From: an uncultured delta proteobacterium
GTDB lineage: Bacteria; Myxococcota_A; Polyangia; Fen-1088
DNA: 64,000 nt
Assembly (NCBI GenBank): GCA_963767925.1
Contig: CAVYGB010000002.1
Location: 1,568,001 to 1,632,000, forward strand
Direction of reading: 5' to 3'
This document shows, piece after piece, positions 14,596 to 52,867 of the stretch. The position numbers were made by a program, and so were the translations under genes. Position 1 is the stretch's first letter; each line of letters opens with the position of its first letter. The notes under the pieces were generated by a model, which ran no database searches, was not told where the DNA came from, and was given only the letters and a program-made list of their open reading frames with translations.

Positions 14596-14721
14596 ACCTC
14601 TCCCCGCGGTCTGCCGTGGGGAGAGGTCGGCGCGTCTGCGCGCCGGGTGAGGGGCCTCCGGCGTGGCAACCGCCCCTCACCCTCCCCTCTCCCCACGGCA
14701 GACTGCGGGGAGAGGGCAAAC
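14596..14721. repeat. composite BoxC/REP-like element (subtype B plus head-to-head partner)
   Basis: 14596-14654 ACCTCTCCCCGCGGTCTGCCGTGGGGAGAGGTCGGCGCGTCTGCGCGCCGGGTGAGGGG, then 14673-14721 CCCCTCACCCTCCCCTCTCCCCACGGCAGACTGCGGGGAGAGGGCAAAC. Confidence 0.85.
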
Positions 14722-24100: not shown

Positions 24101-24167
24101 ACCTCTCCCCGCGGCTGCCGTGGGGAGAGGTCGGCGCGTCTGCGCGCCGGGTGAGGGGCCTCCGGCG
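24101..24167. repeat. BoxC/REP-like element, subtype B
   Basis: Near-identical to 14596-14662; fills the gap between convergent stops. Confidence 0.88.
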
Positions 24168-35666: not shown

Positions 35667-36300
35667 CCCCCTCACCCCACCCTCTCCCCGCTGCCGCGGG
35701 GCGAGGGCGAACGCACAACGGGACAGCCAAAATCCCGGCCCATCCGCCGCTGATCCTTGCTTTTGGCGCTGCCGGTGGCACCCGGCCGAGTGGGGTGAGG
35801 GGTCCGCGGGGAAAGTGATGGTGGCCCGGGGCTGAGCGGGGTGAGGGGTCCGCCGGGAAAGTGATGGTGGCCCGGGGCTGAGTGGGGTGAGGGGTCCGCG
35901 GGGAAAGTGATGGTGGCCCGGGGCTGAGTGGGGTGAGGGGTCCGCGGGGAAAGTGATGGTGGCCCGGGGCCGAGTGGGGTGAGGGGTCCGCGGGGAAAGT
36001 GATGGTGGCCCGGGGCCGAGTGGGGTGAGGGGTCCGCGGGGAAAGTGATGGTGGCCCGGGGCCGAGTGGGGTGAGGGGTCCGCGGGGAAAGTGATGGTGG
36101 CCCGGGGCCGAGTGGGGTGAGGGGTCCGCGGGGAAAGTGATGGTGGCCCGGGGCTGAGTGTGGTGAGGGGGGTCCGCGGGGAAAGTGATGGTGGCCCGGG
36201 GCTGAGTGTGGTGAGGGGTCCGCCGGGAAAGTGATGGTGGCCCGCGGCTGAGTGTTCGCCCTCGCCCCGCGGCAGCGGGGAGAGGGTCGGGGGTGAGGGG
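35667..36300. repeat. inverted BoxC/REP-like pair enclosing a 46-bp tandem array (10 units)
   Basis: Elements at 35667-35712 and 36254-36300; units GAGTGGGGTGAGGGGTCCGCGGGGAAAGTGATGGTGGCCCGGGGC(T/C) span 35788-36249. Confidence 0.95.
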
Positions 36301-46562: not shown

Positions 46563-46776
46563 CGGTCGCTCCATCGCTGACCAGCGCGGCGCGTGCGCGA
46601 GCACCTGACACATTCCGGGACAGGTGGCGTTGCGGCGTTGCACGCGTACTGCGCCGAGAACGCTTTGTTGTGCGGCGGGTCTCGTGTCCTGCTCGTTTTT
46701 GCGATCAATCCCGCTCAATCGCGTTGGTGGCTTCCGCGCGGGGCCAGTAGGGTGGGGCGCAGGAACCACGCCCGCC

Positions 46777-48156
46777 ATGATCAAACCTCCCCCGAACGTT
46801 TCGTCTCGCGCTCTCGCCACCCGGCTGGCCGCGGTCGCCCTCGCGGTGGCCGGCCTGGCCGCCTGCCCGGGCGCCCGGGACGAGTCCGTGCCCGATCCAC
46901 CCATCGAACCCCCGCCGGCGGGCAATGGCGGCAGCGGCGGCACCGGCGCGATCGCCGGGCCGGTCGGAGGTGGTGGAGGTGGCAGCGGCGGCACGGGGGG
47001 CACCACCGCGGCGGATGGCCCCGCGCCCGCGGAGCCCACCCCGCCCGGTCCGGCCGGCGCCTGTCCGGATGGCTTTCACCGCTGCGGCGAGACCTGCGCC
47101 AGCAACAACTCGCTCACCACCTGCGGGTCGGGCTGCGAGCCGTGCCCCACCATCGCCGACGGCGTCGCCACCTGCGACGGCACCCGCTGCGGGATCTCCT
47201 GCCCGGCCGATCGCCGACCCTGCCTCGACCGGTGCATCTCCGCCAGCCAGCCCTGCGACTCCTCCTGTCCGCCGGGGCGCAACCCCTGCAACGGGATCTG
47301 CGTCGAGCCCACCAGCGTCACCGCCTGCGGCACCGCCTGCACCGCCTGCCCGATGTCCCCCAACGGCAAGACCTCCTGCGACGGCCTCACCTGCGCGCTG
47401 GCCTGCAACGACGGGCACTACCTGTGCGAGCCGACCGGATCGTGCAACCCCTTCGCCCAGGCCTGCCGGCGCGGCGAGGTCGACACCTGCGCCCCGGGCT
47501 ACCGCCTGTGTGGCAGCAAGTGCCTGGTCGAGACCGCCTGCTGCACCGAGGGCCAGGAGGGCTGCTCCGAGTGCCAGACCTGCTCGGGCACCCCCGGCCG
47601 GTGCATGAACCGGCCCGACGGGGCCGGCTGCGGCAGCGATCGCGCCTGCCGCAGCGGGGCCTGCGTCTCCTGTCGCACCAGCGGGAGCTGCGGGGCCAGC
47701 AACGCCTGCCGGACCGGTCAATACCAGTGCAGCGCCGGCGTGGAGAGCTGCCGGGAGAGCAACCAGGCCAACGGGACCCGCTGCGGCGGCCAGAACGCCT
47801 GCTTCAACGGGGCCTGCCGGCAGTGCCGGGACAGCGGGGAATGCAGCGACAACCCCTGCGTGAGCTCCTCCTGGCAATGCAGCAACGGGGTCGAGCGCTG
47901 TGTGGAGATGGGCTCGCGACGGGGGGGCCAGCGGGCCTGCCCCAGCCGCGACGACGTCTGCATCCGCGGCCGCTGCACCCGCTGCCGCAACAGCGGCTCG
48001 TGCACCTTCGAGTTCGAGCCGGAGTGCAAGGCGGCCACCTGGCAGTGCTTCGGAGAGGACGGGGGCGAGCAGTGCACCTTCGCCGGAAATCGCCCGCAGG
48101 GGACCTCCTGCTCCGGGGGTCAGTGCGACAACTTCGGGCTCTGCGTGCGGCCGTGA
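46777..48156 (+). CDS. cysteine-rich repeat lipoprotein
   Basis: Lipobox LAAC, Gly/Pro linker, dense Cys repeats. Confidence 0.85.
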   Translation: MIKPPPNVSSRALATRLAAVALAVAGLAACPGARDESVPDPPIEPPPAGNGGSGGTGAIAGPVGGGGGGSGGTGGTTAADGPAPAEPTPPGPAGACPDGFHRCGETCASNNSLTTCGSGCEPCPTIADGVATCDGTRCGISCPADRRPCLDRCISASQPCDSSCPPGRNPCNGICVEPTSVTACGTACTACPMSPNGKTSCDGLTCALACNDGHYLCEPTGSCNPFAQACRRGEVDTCAPGYRLCGSKCLVETACCTEGQEGCSECQTCSGTPGRCMNRPDGAGCGSDRACRSGACVSCRTSGSCGASNACRTGQYQCSAGVESCRESNQANGTRCGGQNACFNGACRQCRDSGECSDNPCVSSSWQCSNGVERCVEMGSRRGGQRACPSRDDVCIRGRCTRCRNSGSCTFEFEPECKAATWQCFGEDGGEQCTFAGNRPQGTSCSGGQCDNFGLCVRP

Positions 48157-48171
48157 CGCTTCCCGGGTCGC

Positions 48172-48188
48172 TGTCACCAAACGTGACA
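48172..48188. promoter_or_regulatory. operator-like palindrome
   Basis: TGTCAC-N5-GTGACA in an AT-richer intergenic region upstream of the second Cys-rich gene. Confidence 0.3.
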
Positions 48189-48351
48189 ACCAGAAACGGA
48201 GCGCGCGGTATTTGCCAATCCGATTGCCGCTGTTGCGCTTGTCACGGTCGCCCATTGGCGATATCTGCGCAATCCAATCTGGAATAATAGGTGACGGACG
48301 AGGGCGCGCTATTGCAGACCGGATGAAGCGCGTGTTATTCGCCGATCCATC

Positions 48352-50193
48352 ATGGTGTCATATTGGAGGGGTATTCGAGCGATTTTGATCACCTCGACCG
48401 GGCTACGCGGGGCGGTCGCCGTCCTCGCCCTGTCGCTGGCCACGGGCTGCTTGCAGGCCCGGGAGGTCGATCCGCAGCGGCCGGTGACCATCGACGCGCG
48501 GCCAGCGGCCACGCCGGACGCCGCCACGCCGGACGCCGTCGTCGAGCCGGACGGTCCGCCCCGTCCGGAGTGTGTCGAGGGCTCGACCGTGTCGAGCGAG
48601 CAGTGCAGCGCCGGCCTGGCCTGTAACGCGGGCAAGTGCCTGCCCTGCGTGGCGGGCGAGAGCTGCACGCCCGAGGATCGCTGCCACAAGGGGACCCGCG
48701 AATGTGGGGCCGCCATCCGCTGCGTCGACACCGGGGCGCTCGCCGATCCCGGGACGACCTGCGGGGACAACCTGGTCTGCTCCGCCGAGGGCAAGTGCGC
48801 GGCCTGCACGGTGGGCGAGGCCTGCACGCCGACCGACCTGTGCAAGGCCGGCAAGATCGAATGCAAGACCGGGGCGCCCGTCTGCGCCCCCGTGGCCGAC
48901 GCCCCCAACGGCAGCGCCTGCGGCGAAGGTCAGGTCTGCAGCGCGGGGGCCTGCGTGGCCTGCCGCGACGGCATGACCTGCGTGCCCACCAACAAGTGCC
49001 ACACCGGCAGCCTCTCCTGCAGCACCGGCACCCCCCAGTGCATGGACGTCGGCAGCAACCTCGCCAACGGCACCTCCTGCGGCGAGGGTCAGGTCTGCCG
49101 CGACGGCGACTGCACCGCCTGCCTGGAGAAGATGCCCTGCTCGCCCCCCGACGCGCCCTGCAAGGCGGGCGAGATCCGCTGCGCCAGCGGCTCGCCGGTC
49201 TGCGTGGCCACCGCCACCAACGCCCCCGACGGCAAGGAATGTGGGGCCGAGCAGGCCTGCCGGGGCGGCATGTGCCGGCAGTGCCGCACCACTGGCACCT
49301 GCGGCAACAACCCCTGCAAGGACTCGACCTACGCCTGCCAGAACGGGGTCGAGAGCTGCCGCGAGACGAACAAGGCCAACGGCACCCTCTGCCCGGGCAA
49401 CGACAACGCCTGCCTCAACGGAAGCTGCCAGCGCTGCCGCACGAGCGGCGAGTGCGACAACAACGACTGCCGGAGCTCCAGCTACCGCTGCGAGGGCGGC
49501 CGCGAGTCCTGCCAGAACACTGGCAACGCGCGGGACGGCACCGGCTGCGGCAACCAGCAGGCCTGCCGGGGCGGCTCCTGCCAGCAGTGCCGCAACTCCG
49601 GCGAGTGCACCCCCGATGGCAACAACGACGAGCGCTGCCTGGTCGGCCGGCGCCAGTGCGGCAGCGACGGCGTCGAGCGCTGCGTGCCGAACGAGAACCG
49701 CGCCTCCCGGGCGCCCGGGTTCGACTGCGGTGGCGGCCGGGTCTGCGCCCGCAAGGCCAACGAGGACCGCACCCTGACCTGCCGGACCCGCCTGCCCGAC
49801 AGCGCCACCAGCTCCTGCCAGCAGGGCCGCGAGCGCACCCGCGAGTGCGCCAGCAACTACTGCAACGAGAACAGCCAGTGCGACCAGTGCGGCCGCGATC
49901 CCTTCGAGTGCTGCCCCGACGGCTCCAACAACGGCTGCGACGGCAACCACTTCTGCAACGAGGCCCAGAACTGCCAGCCGAAGCTCGGCTCCGGCGAGCC
50001 CTGCGAGCAGGGCTCCCAGTGCCGCAGCGGAACCTGCGCCGTCCCCCCCGCCCCCAACGGCGTCTGCAGCAACGACCGCTCCATCAAATGCACCCCCGGC
50101 CGCTCCAACGGCCCCTGCCCCATGCCCGATCCCCTGAACCCCCCCAACTGCGTCGACGCCCCCGACCCCAACGAACCCCCGTCCTGCCGCTAG
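48352..50193 (+). CDS. cysteine-rich repeat lipoprotein
   Basis: Lipobox ATGC; multiple roughly 45-aa six-Cys repeats (NG..CG..Q.C..G.C..C); start approximate. Confidence 0.85.
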   Translation: MVSYWRGIRAILITSTGLRGAVAVLALSLATGCLQAREVDPQRPVTIDARPAATPDAATPDAVVEPDGPPRPECVEGSTVSSEQCSAGLACNAGKCLPCVAGESCTPEDRCHKGTRECGAAIRCVDTGALADPGTTCGDNLVCSAEGKCAACTVGEACTPTDLCKAGKIECKTGAPVCAPVADAPNGSACGEGQVCSAGACVACRDGMTCVPTNKCHTGSLSCSTGTPQCMDVGSNLANGTSCGEGQVCRDGDCTACLEKMPCSPPDAPCKAGEIRCASGSPVCVATATNAPDGKECGAEQACRGGMCRQCRTTGTCGNNPCKDSTYACQNGVESCRETNKANGTLCPGNDNACLNGSCQRCRTSGECDNNDCRSSSYRCEGGRESCQNTGNARDGTGCGNQQACRGGSCQQCRNSGECTPDGNNDERCLVGRRQCGSDGVERCVPNENRASRAPGFDCGGGRVCARKANEDRTLTCRTRLPDSATSSCQQGRERTRECASNYCNENSQCDQCGRDPFECCPDGSNNGCDGNHFCNEAQNCQPKLGSGEPCEQGSQCRSGTCAVPPAPNGVCSNDRSIKCTPGRSNGPCPMPDPLNPPNCVDAPDPNEPPSCR

Positions 50194-50228: not shown

Positions 50229-50487
50229 CCCCTCACCCCTCCCTCTCCCCGCTACCGCGGGGCGAGGGCGAACGACTGCGGGTTGCCAGGATCACCGCCC
50301 GGGCGGGGATCCAGGGTGGATTGTGAGGTTCCCGGGCGGGGATCCAGGGTGGATTGTGAGGTTCCCGGGCGGGGATCCAGGGTGGATTGCGGATCTCCGA
50401 CGCGAGCGTCGCTCGGGAGAGAATCGTGGCACCTTCGCGATCGTTCGCCCTCGCCCCGCGGCAGCGGGGAGAGGGAGGGGTGAGGGG
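50229..50487. repeat. inverted BoxC/REP-like pair enclosing a 33-bp tandem repeat (about 2.8 units)
   Basis: Elements at 50229-50273 and 50443-50487; CCCGGGCGGGGATCCAGGGTGGATTGTGAGGTT starts at 50298, 50331 and 50364 (partial). Confidence 0.92.
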
Positions 50488-50548
50488 TTTCCGGGGATTT
50501 GAGGCTCCCGAGTAACACGTCTCTCGGACGCGCCGATAAGAGCGGGCG

Positions 50549-50908
50549 ATGGAGGTCCCGCTCGCTCGACGCCGACGGCTTCGCCGCCAATCGACCGACG
50601 CTGAGAATGCTCTTTGGCGTCACCTGCGCGGCCGCCGATTTGTCGGTTTCAAGTTTCGCCGACAACACCCATGCGGGCCCTTCATCCTCGACTTCTTCTG
50701 CGCCCGGTCTCTTGTCGCCATCGAGCTCGACGGGGGCCAGCACTTCGAGCCGGAGGCGCAGGCCTACGACGCTCGACGCACCCGCTACCTCGCCGACAGG
50801 GGCATCACGATCGTGCGCTTCGGCGCGGATCTCGTGTTTCGCGAACCCGAGTCGATCCTGATGACCATCGCCGCCGCGCTTGGCGCCTGGGAGGCCTCAC
50901 CCTACTGA
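50549..50908 (+). CDS. DUF559 (YcjD/Vsr-like, restriction-endonuclease fold) endonuclease
   Basis: LRRQSTDAENALWRHLR..KFRRQHP.GPFILDFFC..AIELDGGQH..YDARRT.YL..G..IVRF. Confidence 0.92.
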   Translation: MEVPLARRRRLRRQSTDAENALWRHLRGRRFVGFKFRRQHPCGPFILDFFCARSLVAIELDGGQHFEPEAQAYDARRTRYLADRGITIVRFGADLVFREPESILMTIAAALGAWEASPY

Positions 50909-50933
50909 GCGCACGGATCGGCTCGCCCGGAGA

Positions 50934-51217
50934 CCCCTCACCCCACCCTCTCCCCGCTGCCGCGGGGCGAGGGCGAACGAGTGGTGGAGATGGCTCGTTC
51001 ATCTTGCAGGCGGGCGATGCTGCAAGTGGTGGAGATGGCTCGTTCATCTTGCAGGCGGGCGATGCTGCAAGTGGTGGAGATGGCTCGTTCATCTTGCAGG
51101 CGGGCGATGCTGCAAGTGGTGGAGATGGCTCGTTCATCTTGCAGGCGGGCGATGCTGCAAGTGGTGGAGATGGCTCGTCATCTTGCTGGCGGGCGATCCT
51201 CAGGGAGGGGTGAGGGG
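50934..51217. repeat. BoxC/REP-like element, 45-bp tandem array (4 perfect plus 1 degenerate), hairpin-less inverted remnant
   Basis: Element 50934-50978; AGTGGTGGAGATGGCTCGTTCATCTTGCAGGCGGGCGATGCTGCA at 50980, 51025, 51070, 51115 and (degenerate) 51160; remnant GGGAGGGGTGAGGGG at 51203-51217. Confidence 0.92.
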
Positions 51218-51233: not shown

Positions 51234-52727
51234 TCAGGGGTCGAGTTTCCAGAGGCGGTCGCCGAGGGCGTAGAGGGCGTCGGGGGCGAGGTCGAGGTTG
51301 AGGACGGAGCCGTCGAGGGGGATCGAGCGGACGTGGGCCCCGGTGTTGGAGTCGTATTTGACCACCACCGCGCGCGCCTGGAAGGTCACCCCCTCGACAA
51401 CCAGCTCACCGGGTGAGGCCAGCGCGAGATAGACCGCGTCGCCGGTCGCCAGCAGGGCGCTGCAGCTCACCCCCAGCGGCGCGCTGATCGAGTTGCCCCA
51501 GATGACGCTGCCGTTGGCGGCGGCCAGCTTGGCCACGAACAGGGCGTTGGCGCCCCCGTTCCGGAAGACCTGGGTCAGGAGCTGGAGCTGGCCGGTGAAG
51601 TTCCCGGCCACCAGCAGATCGCCGCCCGGGTTGGTTGTCGTCCGCTCGATGCGCGCGCCCTTGTCGGCCGGGGAGGTCTGGGCCCAGACGACCGAGCGGT
51701 CGGCCCGCCACCGCGCCACCACCCAGTCTCCCGTCGTCGAGCTCAAGGTCCGGTCCCCCAGCCGCAGCGCCCCCACGAACTGTCCCCCGATGGCCCAGCC
51801 TCCGTCGGCCAGCGAGACGGCGTCCGCGACAAGGAACGGCCGGGCGAGCTGGGTGTTGGGGAGCGCCACCCCCCGGGCATCGAGCATCTCCAGGCCGCCG
51901 TTGTTGGCGCTCATGACCAGGAACCGGGTGCCGAAGTTCCACAGGACGTCGACGTTGGAGCGGTCGACCGCCGCCAGGACCTCCCCCGCGGCGCTCAGCC
52001 GCGCCAGCTTGGCCGTGCGGGGTCCGGTCGTCGCGCTGCCGATGAAGCCGGCGGCGTTGATCTCCCCTTCCACCCGGGAGATGGCGCCGAAGCTGACGCT
52101 GCCGGACGGGTAGGCCTTCAGCTCCTGCACCTTGCCGTCGGCTCCCAGCCGGGCGAGGAAGGGCGTGGTCGCGGCCCCGCCGTCGAAGGATCGGTCCCCG
52201 ATGGTGGCCACCCCGAAGGCGGCGCCGCCCACCAGCACGCCGTCGGGCAGGGCCATCAAGGCCGTGCTCCGGGGGACGCTCTGGGCCCACTGGACGCCCC
52301 GTAGATCGAAGCGCGCCACCACCGAGCGGGCGGCGTCCATGACAACGGTGCACGCGCCCTGGCCGCTGCAGTCGCCCGACCAGCCCCCGAAGACCGCGGG
52401 CGGCGTGGCCCGCGCGGTGAACGACACGGTCTGGCCGCGCGGGTGGGTCGCCGAGCAGCGCCCGGCGCACATTCCGCCGGGCTGGGCGATCACCGCCCCT
52501 GCGCCCGTGCCCTCGGTCGCGACGGAGAGGAGGAAGGGCCCGGCCGGCCCGCCCCCGCCGTCGGGCAACACCGGCTCCGGGCCGCCGCCATCGGGACCGC
52601 GGGCGGAGATGAGCTGTCCGGCGTCGCTGCCCCCGCCCCTGCCCCCGTCGTCCAGCTCACTCGCGTCATACCGGGGGGCGTTGCACCCGAGCACCGCGGC
52701 GGCAGCCAGCAGCCCGCCCGCCGCCAT
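51234..52727 (-). CDS. lipoprotein with InlB-B-like repeat and probable beta-propeller
   Basis: Lipobox VLGC; GTGAGAV..VSFTARA..FGGWSGDC..C.V.M..RSVVARF; propeller-like repeats (FLARL, FVAKL..G.VIW). Confidence 0.75.
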   Translation of the reverse strand: MAAGGLLAAAAVLGCNAPRYDASELDDGGRGGGSDAGQLISARGPDGGGPEPVLPDGGGGPAGPFLLSVATEGTGAGAVIAQPGGMCAGRCSATHPRGQTVSFTARATPPAVFGGWSGDCSGQGACTVVMDAARSVVARFDLRGVQWAQSVPRSTALMALPDGVLVGGAAFGVATIGDRSFDGGAATTPFLARLGADGKVQELKAYPSGSVSFGAISRVEGEINAAGFIGSATTGPRTAKLARLSAAGEVLAAVDRSNVDVLWNFGTRFLVMSANNGGLEMLDARGVALPNTQLARPFLVADAVSLADGGWAIGGQFVGALRLGDRTLSSTTGDWVVARWRADRSVVWAQTSPADKGARIERTTTNPGGDLLVAGNFTGQLQLLTQVFRNGGANALFVAKLAAANGSVIWGNSISAPLGVSCSALLATGDAVYLALASPGELVVEGVTFQARAVVVKYDSNTGAHVRSIPLDGSVLNLDLAPDALYALGDRLWKLDP

Positions 52728-52867
52728 GCGGAACAAAAGCCACGACGAACCAAAGTTTGACGGAAGCACGTGACAACCCCTGAGGGCACACACTCTACTA
52801 CTTCACCCCTCCGGGACAACCCCCGGCCCCCGGGCCCGGCTCCCCCGGAGTGGGCCAGATCGCGGCG

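Follow-up and report, generated by a model that had tools for sequence, protein, structure and literature searches.

Comparison of genomes shows that, in many phyla, YcjD-type DUF559 genes lie between BoxC-type repeats, that the abundance of the repeat tracks the gene, and that the repeat-gene-repeat cassette reaches new places, also in frame within other genes. On these sequence comparisons, the YcjD-type DUF559 protein is the leading candidate for the enzyme behind the spread of BoxC repeats. A functional partnership of some kind between the DUF559 nuclease and BoxC is very probable, and the main reading, in which the nuclease would nick folded BoxC DNA and host repair would copy the repeat, is given a probability of about 0.55.

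One such cassette lies in the window (the whole stretch of 64,000 nucleotides that was analysed), which sits on contig C2 of the host genome, G000 (assembly of 9.3 Mb in 13 contigs, 84% complete). The YcjD-type gene (50549..50908, plus strand) was recognised by Pfam search, alignment and modelling and encodes a stand-alone protein of 119 amino acids with a predicted Vsr/EDxHD nuclease fold. A BoxC-type element detected by pattern lies on each side with its head facing the gene. The upstream element (50448..50486, minus strand) is the most frequent exact sequence in G000 (48 of 301 copies), and the downstream element (50935..50973, plus strand) lies 26 nt past the stop codon. The two are 96% complementary over 55 nt, which bears out the initial annotation, where a 119-aa DUF559 gene was placed between inverted elements with heads inward. 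A further head motif announced there was also recovered from the sequence as a relic head, CCTCACCC, inside the last codons of the gene (50895..50902, plus strand). Both flanking elements had been taken for halves of array-holding doublets, which holds for the left side and needs correction on the right. On the left, a distal arm (50230..50268, plus strand, found by pattern) completes a tail-to-tail doublet, and its spacer contains a 33-nt tandem array of three copies (50298..50396, plus strand; two exact, one 85%), full-length copies of which are confined to the DUF559 locus. On the right, a 45-nt tandem array (50980..51200, plus strand) of four exact copies and one degenerate copy (93% over 42 nt) is followed by a head-only remnant of the distal element (51202..51217, minus strand) that has lost its hairpin. 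The 45-nt array is probably a locally amplified piece of spacer, since a standard doublet spacer found elsewhere resembles it weakly (82% over 33 nt, E 0.016). Each of the three full elements here contains, on one strand, the tracts CCCTCNCCC, GGGNGAGGG and GGGNGAGGG. The locus has no match in Rfam, and no match to a sigma-70 promoter or an intrinsic terminator was found. The ORF list and Pfam search place two genes that converge on the cassette: a left neighbour encoding a Cys-rich protein without a Pfam match (48352..50193, plus strand) and a right neighbour encoding a divergent InlB B-repeat protein (51234..52793, minus strand). The region 46624-50193 holds a tandem pair of Cys-rich repeat proteins of 510 and 613 amino acids, the 613-aa one without a Pfam match.

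All seven further element loci annotated in the window (5676, 14598, 18974, 24103, 26165, 35669 and 46513) were found again, and the element head CCCTCACCC occurs 28 times (shuffled mean 1.8, maximum 6). The doublet at 35669-36299 has a spacer with about ten 46-nt units, most of them bearing the CCCTCACCC head, and the amplified unit there takes in part of the element. The loci at 14598-14714 and 24103-24157 belong to a long-linker subtype with an extra hairpin separating head from body; throughout G000, elements of this subtype pair head to head across a spacer fixed at 20 nt.

The host genome contains 301 full elements in 207 clusters, which include 136 single elements, 46 tail-to-tail doublets and 16 head-to-head pairs (15 of them with a 20-nt spacer). 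A degenerate inverted partner was found within 260 nt of 64 of the 136 single elements. Tandem arrays are present inside 16 of the 46 doublets, so the arrays at the DUF559 locus are a family trait and not specific to the gene. The spacers of 25 doublets measure 84-94 nt and are mutually related; in 24 such doublets arm identity is 0.92 and spacer identity 0.60 (shuffled 0.45). No young doublet pair was found in G000, the best spacer pair having an identity of 0.77. The doublet spacers of the window, with arrays collapsed, are weakly related to the spacer family (0.50, against 0.45 for shuffled sequences and 0.60 within the family). Doublet spacers were also considered as decayed DUF559 genes, a possibility that was rejected on a single marginal tblastn match (E 0.006). 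The elements are dispersed and intergenic, with 1 of 301 in a coding-like frame by a crude test, and inverted pairs of two subtypes are present. A Watson-Crick hairpin of -13 to -14 kcal/mol is predicted for the element (z about -2.4). CIR (of Caulobacter) and RIME1 may resemble BoxC.

The BoxC/PIT/TM_ECO family, as described in the main text of Holder et al. 2015 (PMC4666352), likewise has three 9-nt tracts, an intergenic position and inverted two-subtype pairs, whereas the loops of the G000 element exceed the strict TM_ECO limits. The motif with relaxed loops has 194 matches in G000; the strict TM_ECO pattern (first loop 3-6 nt, second 3 nt) has none, and the G000 element is therefore a long-loop variant of the family and not TM_ECO proper. 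According to the same text, BoxC/PIT repeats were recognised in E. coli as early as the 1990s and have been tied to genome instability. No mobility gene was found there to be associated with the motif, and neither 'ycjD' nor 'endonucle' occurs in its main text. No report linking DUF559 or YcjD to BoxC was found in the open literature, subscription papers being outside the scope.

In a Pfam profile search, the ORF at 50549-50908 matches DUF559 (PF04480) with 110.8 bits (cut-off 20.6) and consists of this single domain, with no additional domain for DNA binding. No other stand-alone DUF559 was found in G000; the second PF04480 match is weak and belongs to a 389-aa frame that has no elements. The protein is 49% identical to E. 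coli YcjD, and some of its close homologues are labelled Polyangia. Its score of 98.1 bits misses the enterobacterial NCBIfam PRK09767 equivalog cut-off (218 bits), so the protein is a YcjD homologue and not the enterobacterial equivalog. In many homologues, E. coli YcjD among them, the C-terminus is PSP and is encoded by the element. The residues E19, D48, E59, H65 and D74 are invariant in 74 aligned sequences; D48 and D74 align with D196 and D222 of I-Bth0305I, and H65 falls one column off H213 (profile match of I-Bth0305I to the window protein, E 2e-5). A single-sequence fold (pLDDT 60) gave no usable structural match and was replaced by a model built from the 74-row alignment (pLDDT 88). 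The top three matches of this model in a structure search were 3hrl, 3r3p and 1cw0. The YcjD/DUF559/COG2852 protein NGO0050 of N. gonorrhoeae (PDB 3hrl) has the same fold (Z 15.5, rmsd 1.7, 92 aligned), and the catalytic domain of I-Bth0305I and Vsr gave Z 11.2 and 9.6, respectively; RAP-domain proteins came next (Z 7-9). By this model, the window protein has a Vsr-like fold with E-D-H-D active-site residues and is a putative nuclease. Matches to cholera/heat-labile toxin B in the profile search were weak (E at least 0.15) and were set aside as noise. The passages on YcjD in PMC12817139, PMC1189080 and bioRxiv 10.1101/2021.12.02.470933 go no further than calling the protein hypothetical or Vsr-like.

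The proximity of repeat and gene was measured at the best 80 of 587 confirmed relatives in GTDB genomes (about 15 phyla, 53 of the 80 in Pseudomonadota), using a strict pattern that was built from earlier flanks and fixed before the 80 loci were seen. The enrichment within 300 bp of stand-alone DUF559 genes, which had been proposed as a check, was found: the strict pattern was present at 53 of these best 80 loci and in 20 of 480 control windows, which were other gene ends in the same loci by crude ORF calls. By side, it was present upstream in 42 of 78 and downstream in 42 of 76 of these loci, about 13-fold per side over neighbouring gene ends, and the reversed pattern was present in 2 of 80. 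A relaxed detector, written after the flanks had been viewed, matched 71 of the same best 80 loci, 24 of 479 controls and 11 of 80 reversed sequences. It placed elements on both sides at 47 loci, with heads inward in 38 of the 47. The heads-outward geometry occurs at L015, L018, L024 and L096; at L024 (genome G028), the heads-outward cassette lies in frame within a 1576-aa methyltransferase-like ORF. In the host phylum, palindromes were recognised by eye in 10 of 10 other genomes with a best match of E <= 3e-30, and BoxC flanks were found neither at a second DUF559 clade nor at domains fused to the ends of long proteins. This second clade (L025-L027 and L031, in G139, G124, G099 and G075) has up to 16-17 matches per genome, and L026 and L031 adjoin fragments that we take to resemble IS91-type transposase ends.

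The DUF559 match falls within a long frame at 21 of the best 80 of the 587 loci, and in all 12 of these 21 that were scanned, DUF559 lies within another protein. The in-frame hosts include HrpA (two sites), MetH, HsdM, a class III aminotransferase, ValS and a radical SAM protein, and further hosts are MmeI, Eco57I-like and type ISP enzymes. Element-encoded peptides are present on both flanks of DUF559 in these insertions, and the stop codon of the gene often lies within an element. As the repeat-gene-repeat cassette is found in frame in unrelated genes, it moves. The gene neighbourhood differs in each of the related genomes inspected. No empty site for the DUF559 locus was found, as the right neighbour was not found in five relatives, and two soil DNA runs gave scattered pieces only.

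The gene ycjD had been placed beside fabI in E. coli in the initial annotation, with similar BoxC repeats described there. This proved correct, and the last codons of ycjD overlap a BoxC hairpin. In K-12, a full BoxC lies about 170 nt beyond this hairpin, and elements are present on one side only, with none upstream. The BoxC pattern gives 23 copies in K-12, which is the figure reported in PMC4666352. In the fabI-ycjD intergenic region of K-12 (L014:5290-5400), the 3' end of ycjD is present a second time in decayed form, with GAATATTCTCCAGCACCGTCTCC shared between the copies, which is a sign of past local duplication. The gene is present in 3378 of 5426 E. coli genomes and BoxC in all 5426, at 2-34 places. 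In a sample of 59 chromosomes, from which one small record had been dropped, the median number of BoxC places was 21 with ycjD (37 strains) and 7.5 without it (22 chromosomes), although 10 of the 22 still hold 10-23 places. According to PMC12817139, strains of phylogroups A, B1 and C have ycjD in place of eefRABCD. The BoxC-ycjD link makes both questions, that of the nuclease and that of the repeat, testable in E. coli K-12 through one deletion and one 14-kDa protein.

Elsewhere, absence of a PF04480 match was read as 'not found', since an E. coli control genome gave no such match, as a ycjD-less strain or a miss. Among 151 Enterobacteriaceae genomes, 10 of the 12 whose gene is intact reached at least 12 pattern matches, as did none of the 136 without it (maximum 11); three genomes with broken or partial gene matches (5, 0 and 0 copies) were left out of the 12. 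None of the 68 gene-less Enterobacteriaceae of at least 3.5 Mb reaches 12 copies. In the family of G000, 7 of 8 genomes with the gene and 3 of 17 without it had at least 20 matches (p 0.0017; because kin genomes are not independent, this and the other p values overstate the case). In the phylum, an excess over control of at least 20 was found in 6 of 15 gene-bearing and 6 of 136 gene-less genomes. Copy number had been expected to track the gene, which agrees with the Enterobacteriaceae and is at odds with some repeat-rich genomes in which no YcjD-type gene was detected (G012, G109, G016, G139, G161 and G162). One of these, G012, is a single contig, 93% complete, with 71 matches, and such genomes indicate that the repeats are at least retained where no gene is detectable. 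Conversely, the gene is present but pattern matches are few in G263 (0), G247 (5), G152 (4), G088 (1) and G138 (1). At L139, in genome G160 with its 25 remaining pattern matches, DUF559 is frameshifted and flanked by a single degenerate hairpin, possibly a decay stage of the cassette.

Most genomes carry one copy of the gene, and a DUF559 match was found in 1 of 72,556 plasmid records and 0 of 50,697 phage records. A single chromosomal copy rarely seen on plasmids or phages would also suit a resolver or repair enzyme kept by the host, which unblocks folded BoxC elements that stall replication; the repeats would then persist and not spread, and the flanking copies would be regulatory or a by-product. 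The main text of PMC4666352 reports that PIT elements block DNA polymerase in vitro, Vsr relatives are treated as repair nickases in the relevant part of PMC3239194, and the link between copy number and gene fits equally. However, in-frame cassettes in unrelated genes and differing neighbourhoods in relatives are not predicted by such a role, and dozens of elements are kept in genomes without a detected gene. A resolver is considered unlikely, though by no means negligible.

Filled and empty sites were compared within E. coli, the direction being unrooted. The junctions comprise an 8-bp repeat (92-bp unit), a 3-bp repeat (186-bp doublet), three replacements removing 15-52 target bases and one partial loss. 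Among the eight K-12 loci tried, one was unmatched in the two strains searched and one had lost the neighbouring gene; at L161 and L174, the element was retained where the alignment covered it. No fixed target duplication was found at the E. coli empty sites, and target duplication around the G000 doublets was not above shuffles (p 0.25). The filled sites are heterogeneous and take in flanking DNA, as they might if another enzyme or homology-driven repair moved BoxC and DUF559 were cargo enclosed once. Elements that persist without the gene and the occurrence of two geometries (mostly heads inward, outward at the four loci named above) are consistent with such cargo. Against it stand the residues of catalytic type that are invariant in 74 sequences, and none of the 136 gene-less Enterobacteriaceae genomes proved to have a high copy number. 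RAYT and Y1 enzymes do not track the repeat either. RAYT (NF047646) is present in 8 of 151 Enterobacteriaceae genomes and in none of the six richest, and Y1_Tnp has no link to the repeat in the family of G000 (5 of 10 versus 5 of 15, p 0.44). Ten of the 11 Y1_Tnp genes of G000 have no nearby element; beside the remaining one there is a degenerate element, on one side only, as could arise by chance. RAYT/Y1 was thus rejected as the mobiliser of BoxC, and a RAYT in repeat-rich genomes lacking DUF559, named beforehand as counter-evidence, has no explanatory role here. That DUF559 is a passenger appears quite improbable.

Under the main reading, the nuclease and its cognate repeat would form a system that works like a REPtron with different chemistry. 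DUF559 would recognise the folded element (a hairpin or triplex in transient single-stranded DNA), its Vsr/EDxHD catalytic core would nick at or near the fold, and host repair (template switching, gene conversion, microhomology joining) would copy elements, doublets or the gene-bearing cassette elsewhere. PD-(D/E)XK nucleases hydrolyse DNA and do not transfer strands through a phosphotyrosine as HUH enzymes do, which leaves insertion to host repair. The outcome would be variable ends and no duplication of fixed size, spacers that drift between near-identical arms, and tandem amplification within doublets, all of which the data show. The earlier proposal that DUF559 is a non-HUH mobiliser or processor of the repeat gains from the genomic tests and loses from the repeat-rich genomes without a detected gene. 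It is a tentative suggestion, at slightly under even odds, that BoxC-DUF559-BoxC represents an undescribed class of mobile element with a lone Vsr-fold nickase and joining by host repair. In such a class, the putative nickase would recognise a triplex- or hairpin-folded end and would move its own cassette, in frame even into essential enzymes, and, in trans, hundreds of gene-less BoxC units, and ycjD of E. coli K-12 would be a resident member. If the nuclease mobilises repeats, the nuclease-plus-repeat design extends beyond HUH enzymes; the nuclease may also prove to recognise a non-B DNA fold, and its role would account for DUF559 within methionine synthases, tRNA synthetases, helicases and methylases.

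Head class matches on both sides in 43 of 47 loci among the best 80 of 587 relatives (shuffled mean 18.7). In the same best 80, protein identity and repeat similarity are correlated with a Mantel rho of 0.26 (p 0.001), which is 0.23 after GC and 0.12 across phyla. The AT-rich subtype is concentrated there in one protein clade (support 88), with hosts among cyanobacteria, candidate phyla and deltaproteobacteria-like organisms. The protein tree is poorly resolved, with 39 of 77 forks open, and the weak co-variation of repeat subtype with nuclease is for this reason suggestive only. The correspondence of repeat and nuclease that had been sought is present but weak, above all across phyla.

Convergent gene ends are favoured by the elements (64 of 117 classified clusters), a preference that would fit a protein cutting or binding transcripts at BoxC hairpins in the manner of the Vsr-like RAP domains of FASTK proteins, as would the place of RAP-domain proteins as next structural neighbours (Z 7-9). 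In tandem-gene contexts, however, no strand bias relative to transcription was found (15 versus 12, crude gene calls). The main text of PMC4666352 describes the repeat as free of strand bias and as active neither as promoter nor as terminator, and states that RNA cannot form purine-motif triplexes. Processing of RNA would also leave the mobility of the cassette unexplained and is regarded as very unlikely.

Three known systems share features with the DUF559-BoxC pair. The REPtron (TnpA-REP/RAYT with REP, BIME or REPIN; Corneloup et al. 2021, PMC8266576, in the part drawn on here) likewise has a single chromosomal nuclease gene with cognate palindromes, a presence that correlates with repeat abundance, rarity on plasmids, and doublets with conserved arms (0.92 here) and divergent spacers (0.60 here). 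In contrast to DUF559 with its Vsr/EDxHD fold, its enzyme is an HUH Y1 tyrosine enzyme, and the GTAG tetranucleotide that precedes its palindrome is absent from the G000 elements and flanks. The same part of PMC8266576 states that evidence for mobility of tnpA-REP is lacking, whereas the DUF559 gene travels with its repeats. The EDxHD homing endonuclease I-Bth0305I has the same catalytic domain as DUF559 (Z 11.2) and is, as treated in the corresponding part of Taylor et al. 2011 (PMC3239194), a selfish nuclease relying on host repair, but it has an N-terminal NUMOD DNA-binding region that the window protein lacks. Homing endonucleases reside in introns or inteins and use one homing site; the DUF559 locus has no intron or intein, and DUF559 cassettes have many unrelated insertion sites and end in repeats. 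In MITEs and insertion sequences with terminal inverted repeats, inverted ends likewise surround a gene and gene-less derivatives are far commoner, but DUF559-BoxC has no DDE transposase, no fixed target duplication and no fixed ends, and mostly one gene copy per genome. DUF559-BoxC fails membership of REPtrons, homing endonucleases and MITEs on these defining features.

Element density in G000 is very uneven, with 79 per Mb on C2 and 3.3 per Mb on contig C8, although the tetranucleotide profiles of the two contigs match; C8 carries 34 of the 64 tRNAs of G000 and no Y1_Tnp match. On C2, elements are mildly concentrated near the DUF559 gene (43 versus 31 expected). The density of C2 could suggest that a common repeat gathers by coincidence in permissive intergenic DNA beside a dispensable small gene, but this is highly improbable given the roughly 13-fold per-side enrichment and oriented bracketing among the best 80 of 587 relatives, the stop codon often inside the element and the matched subtypes. 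Other repeats accompany the Y1_Tnp (RAYT-like) genes of G000. Arrays of (GCAGAG)n were observed near 5 of the 11 (L006, L007, L009, L010 and L011) and are inverted around the gene in L006 and L010, and a different 37-copy repeat lies alongside the Y1_Tnp gene of L004.
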